A stretch of 6,176 nucleotides of DNA from a virus (taxonomy: Duplodnaviria; Heunggongvirae; Uroviricota; Caudoviricetes). Below, piece by piece: positions 4 to 6,176 of this stretch (positions are counted from its first letter, which is position 1; every line of letters begins with the position of its first letter). The position numbers and the translations under genes are program-made. The stretch is from IMG/VR virus record IMGVR_UViG_2671180770_000013; one strand, given 5' to 3'. The notes beneath the pieces are model-generated. The model had not been told where the DNA came from, ran no database searches, and saw nothing but the letters and a program-made list of their open reading frames with translations.

Positions 4-1932
4 TCAGCGACTGTAACCATTCACTCCTCCGGACAGCTTCGCTGCCAGTTCTTTAAGGGTTGGCCGGGTCGTCTCTTCTTCCCGGGATTTTGCCAGTACA
101 GCCAGATCAAGCTGCCAGCGTTGCACGGACACACGTAATGCCGCGTAGGCATACACCAGGCAGTCCAGCGCTTCGTTACGCCGCTTTTTGTTATCCCACA
201 GCAGACGCATCTTTCCTTTTTCCCACTTCTCCACCAGCTCTTCCGCCACCAGTTGCTGCGCCTCTGTCTGCGAAAAAATCTCCGGATCATCAGGAAAACG
301 GATGGCATACGACGTGGCTTCATCCGCAGGCGTGGGATCGGCTTTCATACGGGCATAGAGAATTTCTTTTGCGGTGTCCGTCCCCACTTCGCACAGATAC
401 ACGCCCCGCTGATTGCGGGTTTTTGGCATGGTGATCACCGGCTTGCCATAAACAGATGCGCCTTTTACCGGCAGCACCCGGAAAACACCGTGTTTTTTTG
501 ACCTCTGATAGACAATTTCGCCATCGATCCCCCCGGTGTCCCAGCAGACACGGGAAATGGTCATTTCGGTTCCGTCTGCATGGCGGTATTTTTTGTTGAT
601 CGCCACATCCACACGTAACAGCGTCTCTTCCTCATCGGGACGCCCCATAATGATGATTTTATCCACCAGAAAGGCTTCCTCTCCCGGAGCCCATCCCCAG
701 ACATACATCTCAAAACGGTTTCGCTGCGAGTCAATGCCCGCCGTCAGATAAACCACCCGGGAAGGCACCGCAGCCGTGTAACGCACAACCTTATCCATCA
801 GCACCTGGTGATCGAGTTTTTCGCCCACGGCCTCTTCCCAGGTCTCGCCCAGCGTGGTGTTCACAAAGGTTTTCAGGCCGTTGGGATCTTTCAGTGCATC
901 CAGCCAGTCATAGACAATCTGTACCCAGGTGGTGAACGGACTGTACGCCGTCCAGATATGGAATGTGATGGAGCGCGGCGGCGGAATTTCATTATCCGCG
1001 GCGCTGAAAAACGTCAGACCGTCGCGGGTCCACATCCCCGTGTTTTCGCAGATCCACCGCCCGTTGCTCTGGTCAAGCTCAGACTGATGGATCACGCAGC
1101 CATGATGTTCACAGAGGTAGAAAACGCTTTCGGGGCTGTCCTTCTCCCATTTAAGGCCAAAAGGCGTGGACTCATCGCCAAATTTCAGATACTGCGCCTC
1201 CCCACAGTGCGGGCAGGGCACATAAAAACGCATGAAATGCGCCGACTCGTTGGCCGCTTTTTCGATCTGGCAGGAGCCTTTTATTTTAGGCGTCGAGCCG
1301 CGAATGGATTTTGGCCATACCGAGCCCTCAATACGCTTATCCCCCAGCAGGGTTGGCGAGCCCTCTTTTTCGACATCCGGCTCGAACGAGGAAAGTTCGT
1401 CATAGCAGACCACGTCCACGGATTTTTCACGGTAGTTTTTTGCTGCCGCACCACCCAGGCACCAGAAGCCCACCCCCGATGAAAAGCGTTTCAGCGTGAG
1501 AGTATTGTCACGATGTTTACGACCCAGCCACGGGGAAAGATCTTTCAGGCATGGCACGTCCCGAATCGTCGCCTCCACGTGAGACTTCATAAAATCTTCA
1601 GCGGCAGAATCCGTGGGCTGAAAAAGCAGACTGTTTCGGGATTTATGCTCAATAAAATACCCGGCGACTCCCAGCAACATCTTTGTATAGCCAACACGGG
1701 CAGATTTAATCAGATTAACAGTGCGGATCTGATCATTCCCCATACTGTTCATGATGGCGATCTGGAACGGCAGCGTTTTCCATTCGCCGTCACCGTATGA
1801 GGATTCTTTCGGCAGATAATAATACTGGTCAGCCCATTCAACTGCCGTCATCGGTACAACCCTGACCAGAGGCTGCAGCGCAACCGAAACGGCGGCCACC
1901 ATATTATTCAGTTGTTGCTCTGATATATTCAT
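4..1932 (-). CDS. A: phage terminase large subunit (lambda gpA-like)
   Basis: 642-aa ORF. From the MNIS start it aligns along its length with my recollection of lambda gpA (e.g. TAVEWAD..YYLPKES, KSARVGY(T/S)KMLLGV, GDKRIEGSVWPKSIRGSTPK, CPHCGE.QYLKFGD, FHIWTAYSPFTTWVQIV, KKRRNEALDC). Start placed at the ATG at 1932 by that alignment; the ORF track extends to 1989 with a non-homologous 19-aa leader. Stop at 4-6. Confidence 0.9.
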   Translation of the reverse strand: MNISEQQLNNMVAAVSVALQPLVRVVPMTAVEWADQYYYLPKESSYGDGEWKTLPFQIAIMNSMGNDQIRTVNLIKSARVGYTKMLLGVAGYFIEHKSRNSLLFQPTDSAAEDFMKSHVEATIRDVPCLKDLSPWLGRKHRDNTLTLKRFSSGVGFWCLGGAAAKNYREKSVDVVCYDELSSFEPDVEKEGSPTLLGDKRIEGSVWPKSIRGSTPKIKGSCQIEKAANESAHFMRFYVPCPHCGEAQYLKFGDESTPFGLKWEKDSPESVFYLCEHHGCVIHQSELDQSNGRWICENTGMWTRDGLTFFSAADNEIPPPRSITFHIWTAYSPFTTWVQIVYDWLDALKDPNGLKTFVNTTLGETWEEAVGEKLDHQVLMDKVVRYTAAVPSRVVYLTAGIDSQRNRFEMYVWGWAPGEEAFLVDKIIIMGRPDEEETLLRVDVAINKKYRHADGTEMTISRVCWDTGGIDGEIVYQRSKKHGVFRVLPVKGASVYGKPVITMPKTRNQRGVYLCEVGTDTAKEILYARMKADPTPADEATSYAIRFPDDPEIFSQTEAQQLVAEELVEKWEKGKMRLLWDNKKRRNEALDCLVYAYAALRVSVQRWQLDLAVLAKSREEETTRPTLKELAAKLSGGVNGYSR

Positions 1933-2410
1933 CCAGCAAATCCGGTAATTTATCCCCTGCCCGCGCACACTGATTTGCGCCCTTTGCAATAAGGGTTTTC
2001 AGATGGTCAATATGACGTGGCGTTAAATCCGGGAACTGTCGCTGCATGGATAACGGAATGGAATCAAGCGTACTGGACAATGCCATCGCCAGTTTGCTGA
2101 GGGCGAAAACGCAAAAGTCTGAATCGATGAGCTTACCTTCGGTTACCTGATTTTTAAGTTTTTGAGCTACAGCCTGTTCTTCTGTCAGTTCAGCTCTGGC
2201 CCGAAGCAGCCTTTCCTCCAGTTCTCCCCCGTCATCAGGTGTTCTCTGATTGTGTTGTCGCCGCTCGCGATCTATCTCCAGTACAGTTTTAACGTCATAT
2301 AAAACTTCCCTCCCCCGACGTTCAACAGGAGGAACGCCCCATTTATCAAATGCCTGAACAGAGATACCGATGGAGGAGGCCATATCACTTTTATTCAATA
2401 AAAAGGCCAT
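1904..2410 (-). CDS. nu1: phage terminase small subunit (lambda Nu1-like)
   Basis: 168 aa from the ATG at 2410, which has GGAG 5 nt upstream. Resembles recalled lambda Nu1 (G.EVLYD, FC.F.LS, LD..PLS.QR.FP.L..RH.D.LK, LL.EYI). Sits directly upstream of gpA with a 29-nt overlap and about 215 bp downstream of cosN, as in lambda. Start is uncertain: ATG at 2428 and the ORF-track start at 2515 are alternatives but lack a Shine-Dalgarno. Confidence 0.8.
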   Translation of the reverse strand: MAFLLNKSDMASSIGISVQAFDKWGVPPVERRGREVLYDVKTVLEIDRERRQHNQRTPDDGGELEERLLRARAELTEEQAVAQKLKNQVTEGKLIDSDFCVFALSKLAMALSSTLDSIPLSMQRQFPDLTPRHIDHLKTLIAKGANQCARAGDKLPDLLDEYIRATTE

Positions 2411-2440
2411 CTCCTCTCCATAAGTCATCGATAAAAAGCG

Positions 2441-2588
2441 AAACAACAACCATGTGTTTTTGCAAAACCATTTGATATCATTGACATTTTTCGCATTGAC
2501 GACATCAAAACACATCGTAAGGTTGTTGTATTTATTTTATTTTCACCTTACTTATCAATTAGATATACCAAACAATTAAACAACAACC
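2441..2588 (-). promoter_or_regulatory. candidate cosB (terminase small-subunit binding region) with three GGTTGTTGT(TT) repeats
   Basis: Identical 11-mers AAACAACAACC at 2441-2451 and 2578-2588 (minus-strand GGTTGTTGTTT) and an inverted copy GGTTGTTGT at 2521-2529, with an AT-rich tract between the distal pair. Arrangement resembles lambda R1/R2/R3 but the repeat sequence differs from the lambda R sites as I recall them. Confidence 0.4.
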
Positions 2589-2626: not shown

Positions 2627-2638
2627 AGGTCGCCGCCC
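2627..2638 (-). other. cosN cohesive-end sequence (lambda-type 12-mer GGGCGGCGACCT on the minus strand)
   Basis: Plus strand reads AGGTCGCCGCCC at 2627-2638, the exact reverse complement of the lambda 12-nt cohesive end. Orientation and distance to the Nu1 start match lambda left-end architecture. Confidence 0.75.
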
Positions 2639-2837: not shown

Positions 2838-3032
2838 ATGTCAACGAAGAACAGAACCCGCAGAACAACAACCCGCAACATCCGCTTTCCTAACCAAATG
2901 ATTGAACAAATTAACATCGCTCTTGAGCAAAAAGGGTCCGGGAATTTCTCAGCCTGGGTCATTGAAGCCTGCCGTCGGAGACTAACGTCAGAAAAGAGAG
3001 CATATACATCAATCCAAAGTGATGATGGATGA
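2838..3032 (+). CDS. small ribbon-helix-helix (Arc/Mnt-like) protein, possibly DUF3950/YlcI-like
   Basis: 64-aa ORF with ATG start and weak GGGG upstream. Arg-rich N-terminal tail, then NIRFPNQMIEQINIALEQKG-SGNFSAWVIEACRRRL, which matches the beta-strand/helix A/G-x-S-x-N turn/helix B pattern of Arc and Mnt (compare RWP/RMP ... NGRS(V/M)NSE). Contains an NFS motif that I recall as the DUF3950 signature. Confidence 0.55.
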   Translation: MSTKNRTRRTTTRNIRFPNQMIEQINIALEQKGSGNFSAWVIEACRRRLTSEKRAYTSIQSDDG

Positions 3033-3219: not shown

Positions 3220-3768
3220 TCAGGCTTGAATACCTTTATCGAATCCCGGTAATAAAAACTGTCCCTGTCTCTCCAGACGTTCCAGCTTTGCAAGCAATTG
3301 AGGTTTTTTCGTTCTCCCCCAGCGATTGAGCAGACGGCCTGACATGCTGGCGACATCCTTCTCTTTCATGTACTCCAGCATTACGGCGTTACGTTCTGCT
3401 TCATAACTTTCGCTGTACTTACGGAGTTCTGCTGACATCCAGTTAAACGCATTGATATAGGCTTCTTTAACAGCATCGGCTTTTGCCCCGTTAAATCCCA
3501 TAACCAGCATAACGAAGCCACTAAAGTCCATGCGGTAGTAAATCTGTTTCTTGTCAAAAATACCTAAGTCATTGATTTTCTCGACGGCCCAAAAATGGGT
3601 TGTCGAGAATTCCTCAGAACATCTCAAACATTTAATAGCCCTAATCACATGCTGATGGCGTTTACCAAATGCCCTGGCAATCTGGAAGGTGTCAGTTACC
3701 GGTTGACCTTCTGCTGCGGTAACTAACTGGCGAAAGTCGAAGTCATGATTCGCAATTAATTCATTCAT
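3220..3768 (-). CDS. rha: Rha-family phage regulatory protein
   Basis: 182 aa from the ATG at 3768. N-terminal signature LVTAAEGQPVTDTFQIARAFGKRHQHVIRAI is typical of the Phage_pRha domain. The ORF-track start at 3837 is a GTG giving a 23-aa extension; the ATG was chosen by domain boundary. Confidence 0.7.
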   Translation of the reverse strand: MNELIANHDFDFRQLVTAAEGQPVTDTFQIARAFGKRHQHVIRAIKCLRCSEEFSTTHFWAVEKINDLGIFDKKQIYYRMDFSGFVMLVMGFNGAKADAVKEAYINAFNWMSAELRKYSESYEAERNAVMLEYMKEKDVASMSGRLLNRWGRTKKPQLLAKLERLERQGQFLLPGFDKGIQA

Positions 3769-3921
3769 GGCGTTGCCTGCTTCTTTGAAATGAACCTTTG
3801 CCGCACAGGAAACCAGCCCACCGAGGCTCGCCAGCACTAACTGGTATCCTCAAAGGCCCATTCCAAAGGGTCAGGTTCGGTGTTTATTGTGCGCTGCGGT
3901 GCGCGGTGAAATACCGGTACA

Positions 3922-3986: not shown

Positions 3987-4424
3987 TTATTTTAAGCACT
4001 GCGTCCTGATGTATTCCTGCAGGTAGTTAACCTGCGCGGTTATCTTGTCGATTCCACCTCGGAGACGGTAATAATTGAGTTCAGCATCTGCTGTAAGTCC
4101 TGGGCTTTCTCCATCGCCCATGCTGCTGGCTCCGGTCGTTGACTTTGCACAGGTGGCGGAGACTTGCAGGCGCTTACGCCCAGCAGAAACATCAGCACGG
4201 AGACTTTCGATAGTCGCATTAGCATCAGCAAGCTCCTTTGTGTATCTGGCGTCAAGTTCTGCTACATCACGTTGCCGCTTCTGCATATCAGCGATGATGG
4301 ATGTGGCTTTATCGCGCTGCTCTTTGTAGGCGATGGCGTTATCACGGTAATGATTAACAGCCCATGACAGGCAGGCGATAATGCAGATAACCAGAGCGGA
4401 GATAATAACGGTTACCCTGCTCAT
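3987..4424 (-). CDS. Rz: i-spanin Rz
   Basis: 145 aa from the ATG at 4424. N-terminus [31 protein letters not shown] closely matches recalled lambda Rz. Has an N-terminal transmembrane segment and a coiled-coil-like body. Its start overlaps the endolysin stop (ATGA). GGGGG Shine-Dalgarno upstream. Confidence 0.9.
4040..4225 (-). CDS. Rz1: o-spanin Rz1 (lipoprotein) embedded in Rz in the +1 frame
   Basis: 61 aa from the ATG at 4225 with AAGGAG 7 nt upstream. Signal peptide with lipobox (LLGVSA-C), then a Pro-rich mature region ([13 protein letters not shown]). Lies entirely inside Rz in another frame, as in lambda. Confidence 0.8.
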
Positions 4425-4918
4425 TGTTGCCCCCACAAACAGACTTCACGCTCAATCTCGCGGCGAGTCATCAGCCCTTTCCATTGCTTACCGCCAGCGT
4501 ATGTCCAGCGCCGTAGCTGATCACATGCGCTTTTGATATCGCCCTGGTTTATTTTGCGAAGAAGCGTCGATGTTCTGAAATTGCCAGCGCCCACGTTGTA
4601 AACGAACGAGTAAAGAGCGCCGCGCGTTGTTTCCGGTATATCGACTTTGATGTACGGGTTTATTTGTCTGGCGACCGTGGCAAGGTCTTTATTCAGGAGG
4701 GCTTTGCATTCTGCTTCGGTATACGTTTTACCGGGCATGATGTCTTTTCCGGTGTGTCCGTGACATACAGTCCATACGCCAACGATATCTTCGTATGGTA
4801 TGTAGCTGACACCTTCCAGGCCATCGTCACCACTCGGACCAGTGATGAGCACAGACGCTATGGCAACAGCCCCACCACCAATAGCAGCAGCAACGGCTTT
4901 TCGTAATGATGGAGGCAT
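4421..4918 (-). CDS. R: SAR endolysin (phage-21 R-type lysozyme)
   Basis: 165 aa. N-terminal Gly/Ala-rich signal-anchor-release segment ([20 protein letters not shown]). Lysozyme catalytic motif E-x8-D-x5-T ([24 protein letters not shown]). Near-identical to my recollection of phage-21 R and DLP12 RrrD. Confidence 0.9.
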
Positions 4919-5124
4919 TATTCACCTCTCACAGCCTTGCGCTTATCTTCTTTAATCTTGAAATAAAGGTTTGTCAGATACGTCAGCAGGCCAAACAGCA
5001 GACTCCCCAGCACACCTATCGCCACCCACTGGGACGGAGAGACTTTGTCCAGCAGCTGCAGTAACCAGTATCCCGTCCCCACCGCTGACGTGGTGTATGA
5101 CACACCCGTTGTGATTTTTTCCAT
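4918..5124 (-). CDS. S: pinholin (phage-21 S-type class II holin)
   Basis: 68 aa, [68 protein letters not shown]. Two transmembrane segments and a charged C-terminus. Stop overlaps the endolysin start by 1 nt. No in-frame upstream start for an antiholin form. Confidence 0.85.
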
Positions 5125-5167
5125 CTGATGTATGTCTCCGTCACCGCCGACAGAAAATGAAAGTAAA

Positions 5168-5204
5168 GGAAAACAAAAAGCCGCCAGTGTCGCCCACTGA
5201 CGGC
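5168..5204 (-). terminator. intrinsic terminator of a short late leader RNA (tR'-like)
   Basis: Minus-strand RNA GCCGUCAGUG-GGCGA-CACUGGCGGC (10-bp stem including one U-G pair) followed by UUUUUGUUUU. Ends about 44 nt upstream of the holin ATG. Confidence 0.5.
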
Positions 5205-5281
5205 CAACGCCGGGAGCCGTGATTATGGCATTCAGGCTCTGCTAAAAATGCCAGATAACATTCCGGCTCCCCCCCTGATTC

Positions 5282-5310
5282 AGGTTATAAATGACACAAT
5301 ATCTTGACAA
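5282..5310 (-). promoter_or_regulatory. candidate late promoter (pR'-like)
   Basis: Minus strand TTGTCA (5310-5305), then TATAAC after a 15-bp spacer or TAACCT after 17 bp. Lies about 105 nt upstream of the tR'-like terminator with a structured segment between. Identical in the second repeat copy. Spacing is suboptimal and the assignment is tentative. Confidence 0.25.
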
Positions 5311-5380
5311 CACCCATCACTGTCTGTCAGAAAATGTACTGCCAGATATAAGTATCATGTGAAACCCAACTATCCTTCTT

Positions 5381-5423
5381 AGCCAGTACTTCTCCGACGA
5401 AAGTCAGTACTGGCTGTTTTTTT
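5381..5423 (+). terminator. plus-strand intrinsic terminator directly 3' of the gene X stop
   Basis: AGCCAGTACT..(GAC-GAAA-GTC)..AGTACTGGCT: 10-bp perfect stem with an inner GAAA-capped 3-bp stem, then G + T7. On the minus strand no U-run follows the hairpin, so it is terminator-like only on plus. Confidence 0.5.
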
Positions 5424-5424
5424 A

Positions 5425-5808
5425 TTATGCTGCCGGTGCATTTATCTCCAGCACCAGACTTTCTATCTCAACGCCATACGCTGCATTTTTTGTAACATCC
5501 GTCAGCGTCAGCGCATTCAGCCCCAGTGTCAGACTGTCTTTTATGACCTGGAATGCCGGGCCAGCCACTCCATTCAGTTTCGGAGTAACCGTGGCACTGC
5601 CGGCGGTGAACACCAGCTCCAGCGTCTGCCAGTCGTTACCGTAATCGCCGAACTCCCCCAGCTTCGTGTTTCCGGCTTTCCTGTGATGCATCAGATTCAC
5701 TCTAGCCACCCACTGGGACGGAGAGACTTTGTCCAGCAGCTGCAGTAACCAGTATCCCGTCCCCACCGCTGACGTGGTGTATGACACACCTGTTGTGATT
5801 TTTTCCAT
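5425..5808 (-). CDS. chimeric ORF: pinholin N-terminal 35 codons fused in frame to the C-terminal 92 codons of an unidentified protein (gene X)
   Basis: ATG at 5808 is the duplicated holin start. Residues 1-35 are identical to the holin, with one synonymous difference. After the junction at 5704/5705 the frame continues through [92 protein letters not shown] to TAA at 5425-5427. Whether it is expressed or functional is unknown. Confidence 0.45.
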
Positions 5809-6063
5809 CTGATGTATGTCTCCGTCACCGCCGACAGAAAATGAAAGTAAAGAAAAACAAAAAAGCCGCAAGTGTCACCGACTGACGGCCAACGCCGGGA
5901 GCCGTGATTATGGCATTCAGGCTCTGCTAAAAATGCCAGATAACATTCCGGCCTCCCCTGATTCAGGTTATAAATGACACAATATCTTGACAACATCCGT
6001 CACTGTCTGTCAGAAAATGTACTGCCAGATATAAGTATCATGTGAAGTACATCTACCCGTTTT

Positions 6064-6099
6064 AGCCAGCGTCCTTCAGAGTGGGCGCTGGCTTTTTTT
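6064..6099 (+). terminator. plus-strand intrinsic terminator, copy-2 variant
   Basis: AGCCAGCGTCC-TTCAGAGT-GGGCGCTGGCT (11-bp stem with one U-G pair) followed by T7. Flanks match copy 1 but the stem interior differs while still pairing. Confidence 0.5.
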
Positions 6100-6100
6100 A

Positions 6101-6176
6101 TTATGCTGCCGGTGCATTTATCTCCAGCATCAGACTTTCTATCTCAACGCCATACGCTGCATTTTTTGTAACATCC
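6101..6176 (-). CDS. 3' end of unidentified gene X (continues beyond window)
   Basis: Same reading frame and C-terminus as the gene X segment in the chimera ([24 protein letters not shown], one Val-to-Met difference). Stop TAA at 6101-6103. Open to the window edge. Confidence 0.5.
   Translation of the reverse strand, partial: DVTKNAAYGVEIESLMLEINAPAA

Follow-up and report, generated by a model that had tools for sequence, protein, structure and literature searches.

What are the two hairpins that end beside esterase stop codons in this late phage region, and why does one piece of DNA carry two versions of them? The window (the whole 6,176-nt stretch of Caudoviricetes DNA analysed, IMG/VR record IMGVR_UViG_2671180770_000013) holds one hairpin at 5381-5423 (copy A) and one at 6064-6099 (copy B). 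A first-pass annotation had reported both hairpins and their common flanks, and the coordinates, the shared AGCCAG/CTGGCT and the orientation antisense to the late genes were all confirmed. It did not recognise each hairpin as the 3′ end of a short plus-strand sRNA gene. We consider it highly probable that the hairpins are the terminators of two paralogous prophage sRNA genes, PasC and a variant of the PasA family, which lie in the esterase-holin interval antisense to the late operon.

The window corresponds to the late region of a lambdoid prophage of the E. coli type, and its late genes are on the minus strand (Table 1). The segment 4900-6176 was matched in 4836 of 5426 complete E. coli genomes, and the best records listed are annotated 'SASA family carbohydrate esterase / class II holin / lysozyme RrrD'. 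The order esterase-holin-lysozyme is also that of Stx1 phages, 434 and H-19B, and the esterase fragment is 99% identical to the 3′ end of the phage 434 esterase up to ...ATTCACTCT and matches Pfam DUF6645. Nu1 and the DUF3950 ORF are separated by a lambda-type cohesive end (GGGCGGCGACCT on the minus strand), from which it follows that the ends of the phage genome are joined within the window.

Table 1. Features of the window, in order of position.
Feature	Position	Strand	Basis or remarks
Terminase large subunit	4-1989	-	late gene
Nu1	1904-2515	-	late gene
cosN	2627-2638		AGGTCGCCGCCC on plus strand
DUF3950 ORF	2838-3032	+	
Rha-type regulator	3220-3837		
Rz	3987-4436	-	
SAR endolysin R (lysozyme)	4421-4918	-	
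Intact class II (P21-type) holin S	4918-5124	-	434 annotation, Pfam
Promoter-like box, copy A	5304-5335	+	TTGACA (5304-5309), 10 nt, CTGTCTGT, CAGAAAAT
PasA-family sRNA gene, copy A variant	5339-5423	+	85 nt; alignment to PasA
Copy A intrinsic terminator (predicted)	5381-5423	+	fold, pair counts
SASA/NanS-p type sialate esterase 3′ fragment	5425-5703	-	93 codons including stop; fused to holin fragment upstream
Chimeric ORF ('gene X')	5425-5871	-	P21-type holin N-terminus (ATG at 5808) and esterase C-terminal 92 residues, in frame
Tandem duplication junction	5703-5707	.	esterase ...CACTCT, extra A, GCC common to both partners, then holin codon 35
Promoter-like box, copy B	5987-6018	+	same box as copy A
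pasC sRNA gene, copy B	6022-6099	+	78 nt; 76/78 identical to E2348/69 PasC
PasC intrinsic terminator (predicted)	6064-6099	+	fold and terminator scan
Second esterase 3′ end	6101-6176	-	runs off window

In copy A, positions 5381-5391 pair with 5405-5415, a 3-bp inner helix within the stem is capped by a GAAA loop, and G5416 and T5417-5423 follow. Copy B has an 11-bp stem (6064-6074 with 6083-6093), an 8-nt loop and a T run up to 6099. The plus-strand minimum free energies are -18.7 kcal/mol (z -4.7) for copy A and -22.7 kcal/mol (z -5.2) for copy B, with 0 of 200 dinucleotide shuffles as stable in either case, and the claim that each version keeps a stable stem ahead of a T-tract held up. The corresponding minus-strand folds reach -18.0 and -18.1 kcal/mol, so that the plus strand is just slightly more stable. 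Only on the plus strand do seven T stand 3′ of each hairpin; on the minus strand both lack a U tract, and AAGAAGG or AAAACGG is found instead. Moreover, the copy B stem contains a U-G wobble that pairs on the plus strand only, and the minus-strand fold has an internal A.C mismatch. Since the U-G pair is formed in plus-strand RNA only, it identifies the strand. In variant L011 this pair is turned into U-A.

A stable GC-containing stem with at least five U directly 3′, the criterion for an intrinsic terminator used here, was found for both hairpins on the plus strand and for neither on the minus strand. Both are predicted Rho-independent terminators, with the signal on the plus strand alone as had been proposed, and the annotated 3′ ends of PasA and PasC in E2348/69 coincide with the last U. 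A simple terminator scan ranked copy B first in the window and missed copy A only because of its loop-size limit. The T runs stop one base short of the esterase stop codons (5425-5427 for copy A and, by homology, 6101-6103 for copy B), which agrees with the placement at the stop codon of 'gene X' given in the first-pass annotation. The outer stem AGCCAG/CTGGCT is common to both copies, and the stem positions that follow it (T-A, A-T, C-G and T-A in copy A; C-G, G-C, T-G and C-G in copy B) are changed on both sides. The compensatory stem changes first noticed between the two copies are therefore real at the inner pairs, and they extend to the whole family (see below). The interiors had also been called unrelated. 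They do differ strongly (52.8% identity in the diverged patch), but the term overstates the case, as the elements are paralogues that align end to end.

Copy B is PasC. The E2348/69 PasC gene, read from NC_011601 1290909..1290832, gives a 78-nt RNA ending on the last T of the run, and the reverse complement of the published 25-nt PasC northern probe corresponds to window positions 6048-6072 base for base. The PasC of EPEC E2348/69 has the same probe site, the same terminator, the same site directly 3′ of the esterase stop and the same antisense orientation. It differs at sRNA positions 7-8, which are AG in E2348/69 and GA in copy B, a variant that recurs in other IMG/VR prophage contigs. The E2348/69 locus also has an IS element in place of the holin side, whereas the window has a truncated duplicate holin there. 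Near-identity over the full length, the antisense esterase-holin locus and a stem-loop with U tract were thus all found, and the PasC core is present in 206 of the 5426 complete E. coli genomes.

Copy A was assigned to the PasA family by end-to-end alignment (70 of 85 positions identical to PasA, 82%), its 5′ end being set from alignment to the annotated PasA and PasC ends of E2348/69. It differs from PasA at 4 of the 25 probe positions, aligns along its whole length with PasC as well, scores 98.7 bits with the covariance model described below and has a full-length core in 87 of 5426 complete E. coli genomes. Its locus, orientation, promoter box and terminator architecture are those of the PasA family. 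PasA of E2348/69 and EcOnc51 of EHEC Sakai share with it the length of 85 nt, the promoter box, the leader, the stem base, the locus, a GAAA-containing apical region and a tail of G plus seven U. The 5′ stem arm of copy A matches the PasA seed site (GCCAGUACUU vs GCCAGCACCU in PasA), but the published seed is not conserved, since 2 of its 10 positions differ. The first of these changes is matched on the 3′ arm by a G-to-A change relative to PasA, and copy A has one extra U-A pair. A further difference lies in the arrangement: copy A is a single module adjacent to the stop codon, while PasA usually precedes a second module, and in E2348/69 PP2, phage 434 and H-19B it is the first hairpin that carries the PasA probe site. 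The expression and targets of copy A would be those extrapolated from PasA.

PasA and PasC are known from E2348/69 as Hfq-dependent sRNAs, with coordinates and northern probes in Table S6, where the orientation '> < >' denotes a gene antisense to both neighbours, as in the window (Pearl Mizrahi 2021, PMC8550237). On northern blots they are RNAs of about 79-85 nt (~79 nt for PasC, whose expression was seen in E2348/69), abundant and stabilised by Hfq, and in RIL-seq they form chimeras with many mRNAs and rank high by partner number (Pearl Mizrahi 2021, PMC8550237). According to the same study, this Hfq regulon covers virulence-gene mRNAs and the neighbouring esterase mRNA, with 668 PasA chimeras to E2348C_1246 and 34 to E2348C_0688 at the esterase mRNA 3′ end, and the PasA seed is located in the terminator stem, on its 5′ arm (fig. 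S5; Pearl Mizrahi 2021, PMC8550237). The EHEC homologues named there are EcOnc51 and EcOnc52 of Tree 2014; the Hfq-CRAC cluster coordinates of Tree 2014 in Sakai place EcOnc51 on the PasA-type module of Sp12 and EcOnc52 on module 2 of Sp4. A more recent report assigns pasA and pasC to the interval that separates the sialic acid esterase from the holin-lysozyme genes, derives both from a common ancestor with compensatory changes in the consensus fold, and terms a seed that doubles as the terminator 5′ arm unusual (Zhu, Shabalina, Storz 2026 preprint).

The pasA/pasC locus is therefore already described, and the only new item in the window is a private duplication that sets the PasC and PasA-type genes 683 bp apart. 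The main value of the analysis lies in the correct labelling of the hairpins, and the locus ties this prophage to a published Hfq regulon. No sRNA model of Rfam 15 matched anywhere in the window at E up to 1; the sole hit was ncr982, an unrelated, terminator-like Bacillus model, which reached 28.5 bits at the copy A terminator, short of its gathering score of 50. Likewise, no feature is annotated under the RefSeq E. coli matches listed for the copy A and PasC cores. With neither features nor a model to go by, a reader of the sequence alone sees just a hairpin at a stop codon.

Each sRNA gene is preceded by the same promoter-like box, which ends 3 nt upstream of the sRNA 5′ end in copy A. The box and its spacing are kept across PasA and PasC modules and in the otherwise diverged module 2 sRNA of 434 and H-19B. 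The box, which has a weak -10 region, would act as a promoter, and the mature 5′ end of PasA may stem from processing of a longer transcript (Zhu, Shabalina, Storz 2026 preprint). The box was missed by a simple promoter scan of the window. The hit that heads the list of that scan (6075-6104) lies inside the PasC terminator and was rejected as a coincidence with the consensus. When GTDB species representatives were scanned for the promoter box, E. albertii came up together with three hits in unrelated phyla. These three were taken as chance, given an estimate of about four chance matches for the pattern, and the scan returned no new stem variants.

Several related systems help to place the two genes. 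In many relatives a third paralogue, module 2 (EcOnc52), which has its own promoter box, separates PasA from the esterase stop (L001 2607-2689; L002 2475-2554; L126 399-476; L129 4990-5069), which means that a natural array of two sRNAs exists. In phages 434 and H-19B the interval has two tandem hairpins, each following TTGACA, 10 nt, CTGTCTGT and an A-rich stretch, and the phage 434 record annotates both as terminators on the same strand. Module 2 (434, H-19B, Sakai Sp4/Sp12, E. albertii) resembles the window genes in promoter box spacing and in its site next to the stop codon, and shares with PasC the AGCCAGCG...CGCUGGCU stem base and the U tail. It differs in a shorter, unrelated leader and another loop; the window contains none, having one module per esterase stop. 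AgvB and AsxR (RF02702, RF02703) are likewise short Hfq-binding sRNAs of the lambdoid prophage late region with a variable part and a conserved terminator, but they lie 3′ of PR′ in a moron site, form convergent pairs and combine a variable 5′ end with a conserved 3′ region. An AgvB/AsxR identity of the window hairpins was rejected, as neither of their Rfam models gave a hit in the window up to E = 1.

In their GC-rich stem and seven U the hairpins also resemble the terminators of Hfq-dependent sRNAs in general. Such sRNA 3′ ends also bind the proximal face of Hfq, and the Pas terminators are probably Hfq-binding 3′ modules as well. The Pas RNAs differ from the generic case in that, according to the published work, their seed is at the same time the 5′ stem arm.

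Relatives were collected by an exact-pattern scan of IMG/VR for the esterase 3′ end, which returned at least 120 stretches and, together with the reference loci, at least 124 occurrences. The esterase-holin interval is about 305-316 bp long in the one-module form and about 456-462 bp in the two-module form. Among the matches listed from IMG/VR and the reference loci, four hairpin types account for nearly all copies: the PasA type (stem GAGCCAGCACC...GTGCTGGCT), the copy A type (TAGCCAGTACT...AGTACTGGCT), the PasC type (TAGCCAGCGTCC...GGGCGCTGGCT) and the module 2 type (TAGCCAGCGTC...GTCGCTGGCT). Both hairpin versions of the window were found again, exactly, in other prophage contigs. Moreover, leaders and hairpins occur in mixed combinations, one example (L027) joining a PasA-type leader to a PasC hairpin.

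Covariation was assessed in 14 distinct family sequences, which represent about four lineages. The six outer pairs are invariant and the five inner pairs are altered on both sides. Standard pairing is present in 91.6% of cells, compared with 19-49% after a shift of the 3′ partner by 1-3 columns, and RNAalifold recovered from this alignment the same helix as the pair counts. Related phages thus yielded further covarying variants, in the form of four hairpin types at one locus with paired inner changes. As there are only about four lineages, the paired changes amount to a handful of events, and some may have been brought in jointly by recombination, not by stepwise compensation.

A covariance model built from the same alignment was used to search 734 kb from 78 sources (the window and 77 prophage or phage loci). 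All hits with E < 0.001 came from the esterase-holin interval, with the exception of two. A closer inspection of these reveals that the first (L076 1566-1644) is a PasA copy broken inside the 3′ arm of the terminator, apparently by inserted DNA; it may be the terminator-less PasA-3 of Zhu, Shabalina, Storz 2026 preprint. In the second (L035 5821-9402) a block comprising pasA, holin, R, Rz and PerC is inverted relative to the esterase and module 2, and pasA keeps its holin side. Within the 734 kb searched, the sRNA element is tied to a single locus or to rearranged derivatives of it.

Both hairpin versions are present in one window because of a 684-bp tandem duplication, seen as a direct repeat with copies at 5016-5500 and 5700-6176. 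In the right copy, the esterase 3′ end is followed by pasC, the intergenic region and the first 35 holin codons; the left copy has the PasA-type gene, then the intergenic region and a holin that is intact. Identity between the copies is 96.3% before 5364, 52.8% in 5364-5416 and 98.8% after, so that the sharply bounded diverged patch comprises the hairpin and about 17 nt upstream. At the junction, an internal esterase site 276 nt before the stop is joined to the holin through 3 nt of microhomology (GCC) and one added base. The holin-esterase fusion designated 'gene X' is a consequence of this duplication, and in its product the Pfam matches are Phage_holin_2_1 (residues 23-56) and DUF6645 (residues 57-109). 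In 5426 complete E. coli genomes a 51-nt query spanning the junction had no match, and a 30-nt exact pattern had none in IMG/VR and GTDB species representatives; absence from these collections indicates that the junction is either private to its source or an artefact. The repeat copies also differ by scattered substitutions outside the sRNA core. With scattered substitutions as well as a differing core, a single illegitimate exchange fits better than duplication followed by divergence, and we infer that illegitimate recombination between two related prophages, one with pasC and one with a PasA-type gene, stacked both sRNAs. If real, the duplication is one route by which prophages can gain a second sRNA specificity.

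The mapped position of the PasA seed suggests how the stem might diversify. In each sRNA gene a conserved promoter-like box containing TTGACA precedes a leader of 26 nt, which is conserved too, a core that varies, and the stem-loop. The stem base AGCCAG/CTGGCU, with seven U after the stem, is invariant across the family. Seed changes in the inner stem would alter the choice of targets, and the 3′ arm would match each seed change, which would keep termination and RNA stability intact. The location of the seed in the 5′ arm of the terminator would then be the reason for the paired diversification of the inner stem. A more far-reaching version of this idea, in which the inner stem is a changeable seed and a recent illegitimate recombination stacked two specificities 683 bp apart as a live example of how the 434 and H-19B arrays arose, is decidedly speculative, and we doubt that it holds as a whole.

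Possible targets were considered within the window. The sole substitution in the last 84 nt of the two repeat copies (5454 vs 6130) falls inside the published PasA target motif (site 5448-5458) of the esterase mRNA. The copy A mRNA has CUGGUGCUGGA there and the copy B mRNA CUGAUGCUGGA, the alleles of E2348C_1246 and E2348C_0688. Full-length duplex predictions of each sRNA against the esterase 3′ end were within about 1.5 sd of shuffled targets. A seed scan of the window gave as the best PasC site a 10-bp match in the endolysin R mRNA (-22.6 kcal/mol), which at 4582-4594 (minus strand) carries GUGGGCGCUGGCA, nearly the 3′ arm of the PasC terminator (6081-6093). This energy is about the extreme expected among some 6000 positions, and the R mRNA is not claimed as a PasC target. 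The RIL-seq tables contain no lysozyme chimeras because the late genes are silent in lysogens.

Three other readings of the hairpins were weighed against that of sRNA terminators. Were they insulators only, barring stray antisense transcription from the esterase gene, the short RNA would be a functionless by-product. The T run does end one base before the esterase stop codon. In E2348/69, moreover, a minor 236-nt form of PasA reads through to a second terminator 151 nt downstream, beside the stop codon, so that the first terminator is leaky and the one at the stop codon of such two-module prophages catches its read-through. However, PasA and PasC are abundant and Hfq-stabilised and have many RIL-seq partners (the 668 chimeras of PasA with E2348C_1246, for example), and hundreds of genomes have kept promoter box, leader and terminator together as one conserved unit. 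This makes a pure insulator very improbable. What stands of the insulation of 'gene X' suggested by the first-pass annotation is that the terminator keeps sRNA transcription out of the esterase gene, as a by-product; nothing points to a primary role. It is equally hard to believe that the relevant element is the minus-strand hairpin, stabilising the late mRNA at its 3′ end or serving as its processing site. The minus strand folds too and its hairpin begins right after the stop codon, but it has no U tract, the PasC U-G becomes an A.C mismatch, the PasA hairpin of two-module prophages is about 150 bp past the stop codon, and the published probes detect plus-strand RNA. The further suggestion of a mobile boundary element, a small mobile or recombinogenic unit marking the junctions of phage modules, was abandoned and is given next to no credence here. 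The sharp edges of the diverged patch (96%, 53% and 99% identity) and the mixed leader-hairpin combinations such as L027 are what one would expect of such a unit; against it, the covariance hits in the 734 kb searched are confined to the esterase-holin interval apart from L076 and L035, terminal repeats and target duplications are absent, the recombination junction of the window (5703-5707) is inside coding sequence and not at a hairpin, and the mosaicism fits ordinary homologous exchange between conserved flanks.

The remaining alternative concerns the duplication and leaves the sRNA terminators untouched: the 684-bp repeat could be an assembly or cloning artefact, a chimeric join of two prophage copies whose hairpins are nonetheless real. 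The junction is absent from the 5426 complete E. coli genomes, from IMG/VR and from the GTDB representatives, and some genomes carry both sRNA types in separate prophages, the two cores in E. coli O145 RM9872 being about 1.15 Mb apart. On the other hand, the join is between non-homologous sequences with 3 nt of microhomology and one base, which is not an outcome of repeat collapse, the fusion ORF keeps the reading frame, and the rest of the window is free of anomalies. We regard an artefact as unlikely, though to be reckoned with, and retain the reading of two sRNA genes stacked by recombination.

A separate pair of hairpins is present on the late strand. A short way upstream of the holin start, at 5179-5205 (minus strand), there is a hairpin that resembles a terminator and has a T run; it recurs at 5863-5889 (minus strand). 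The first folds at -21.6 kcal/mol; the second, with three substitutions, reaches -12.4 kcal/mol and is no better than shuffles. The phage 434 record marks the hairpin upstream of the holin start as a terminator, and it could be either a late-operon terminator with Q-dependent read-through or the point where another short RNA ends.
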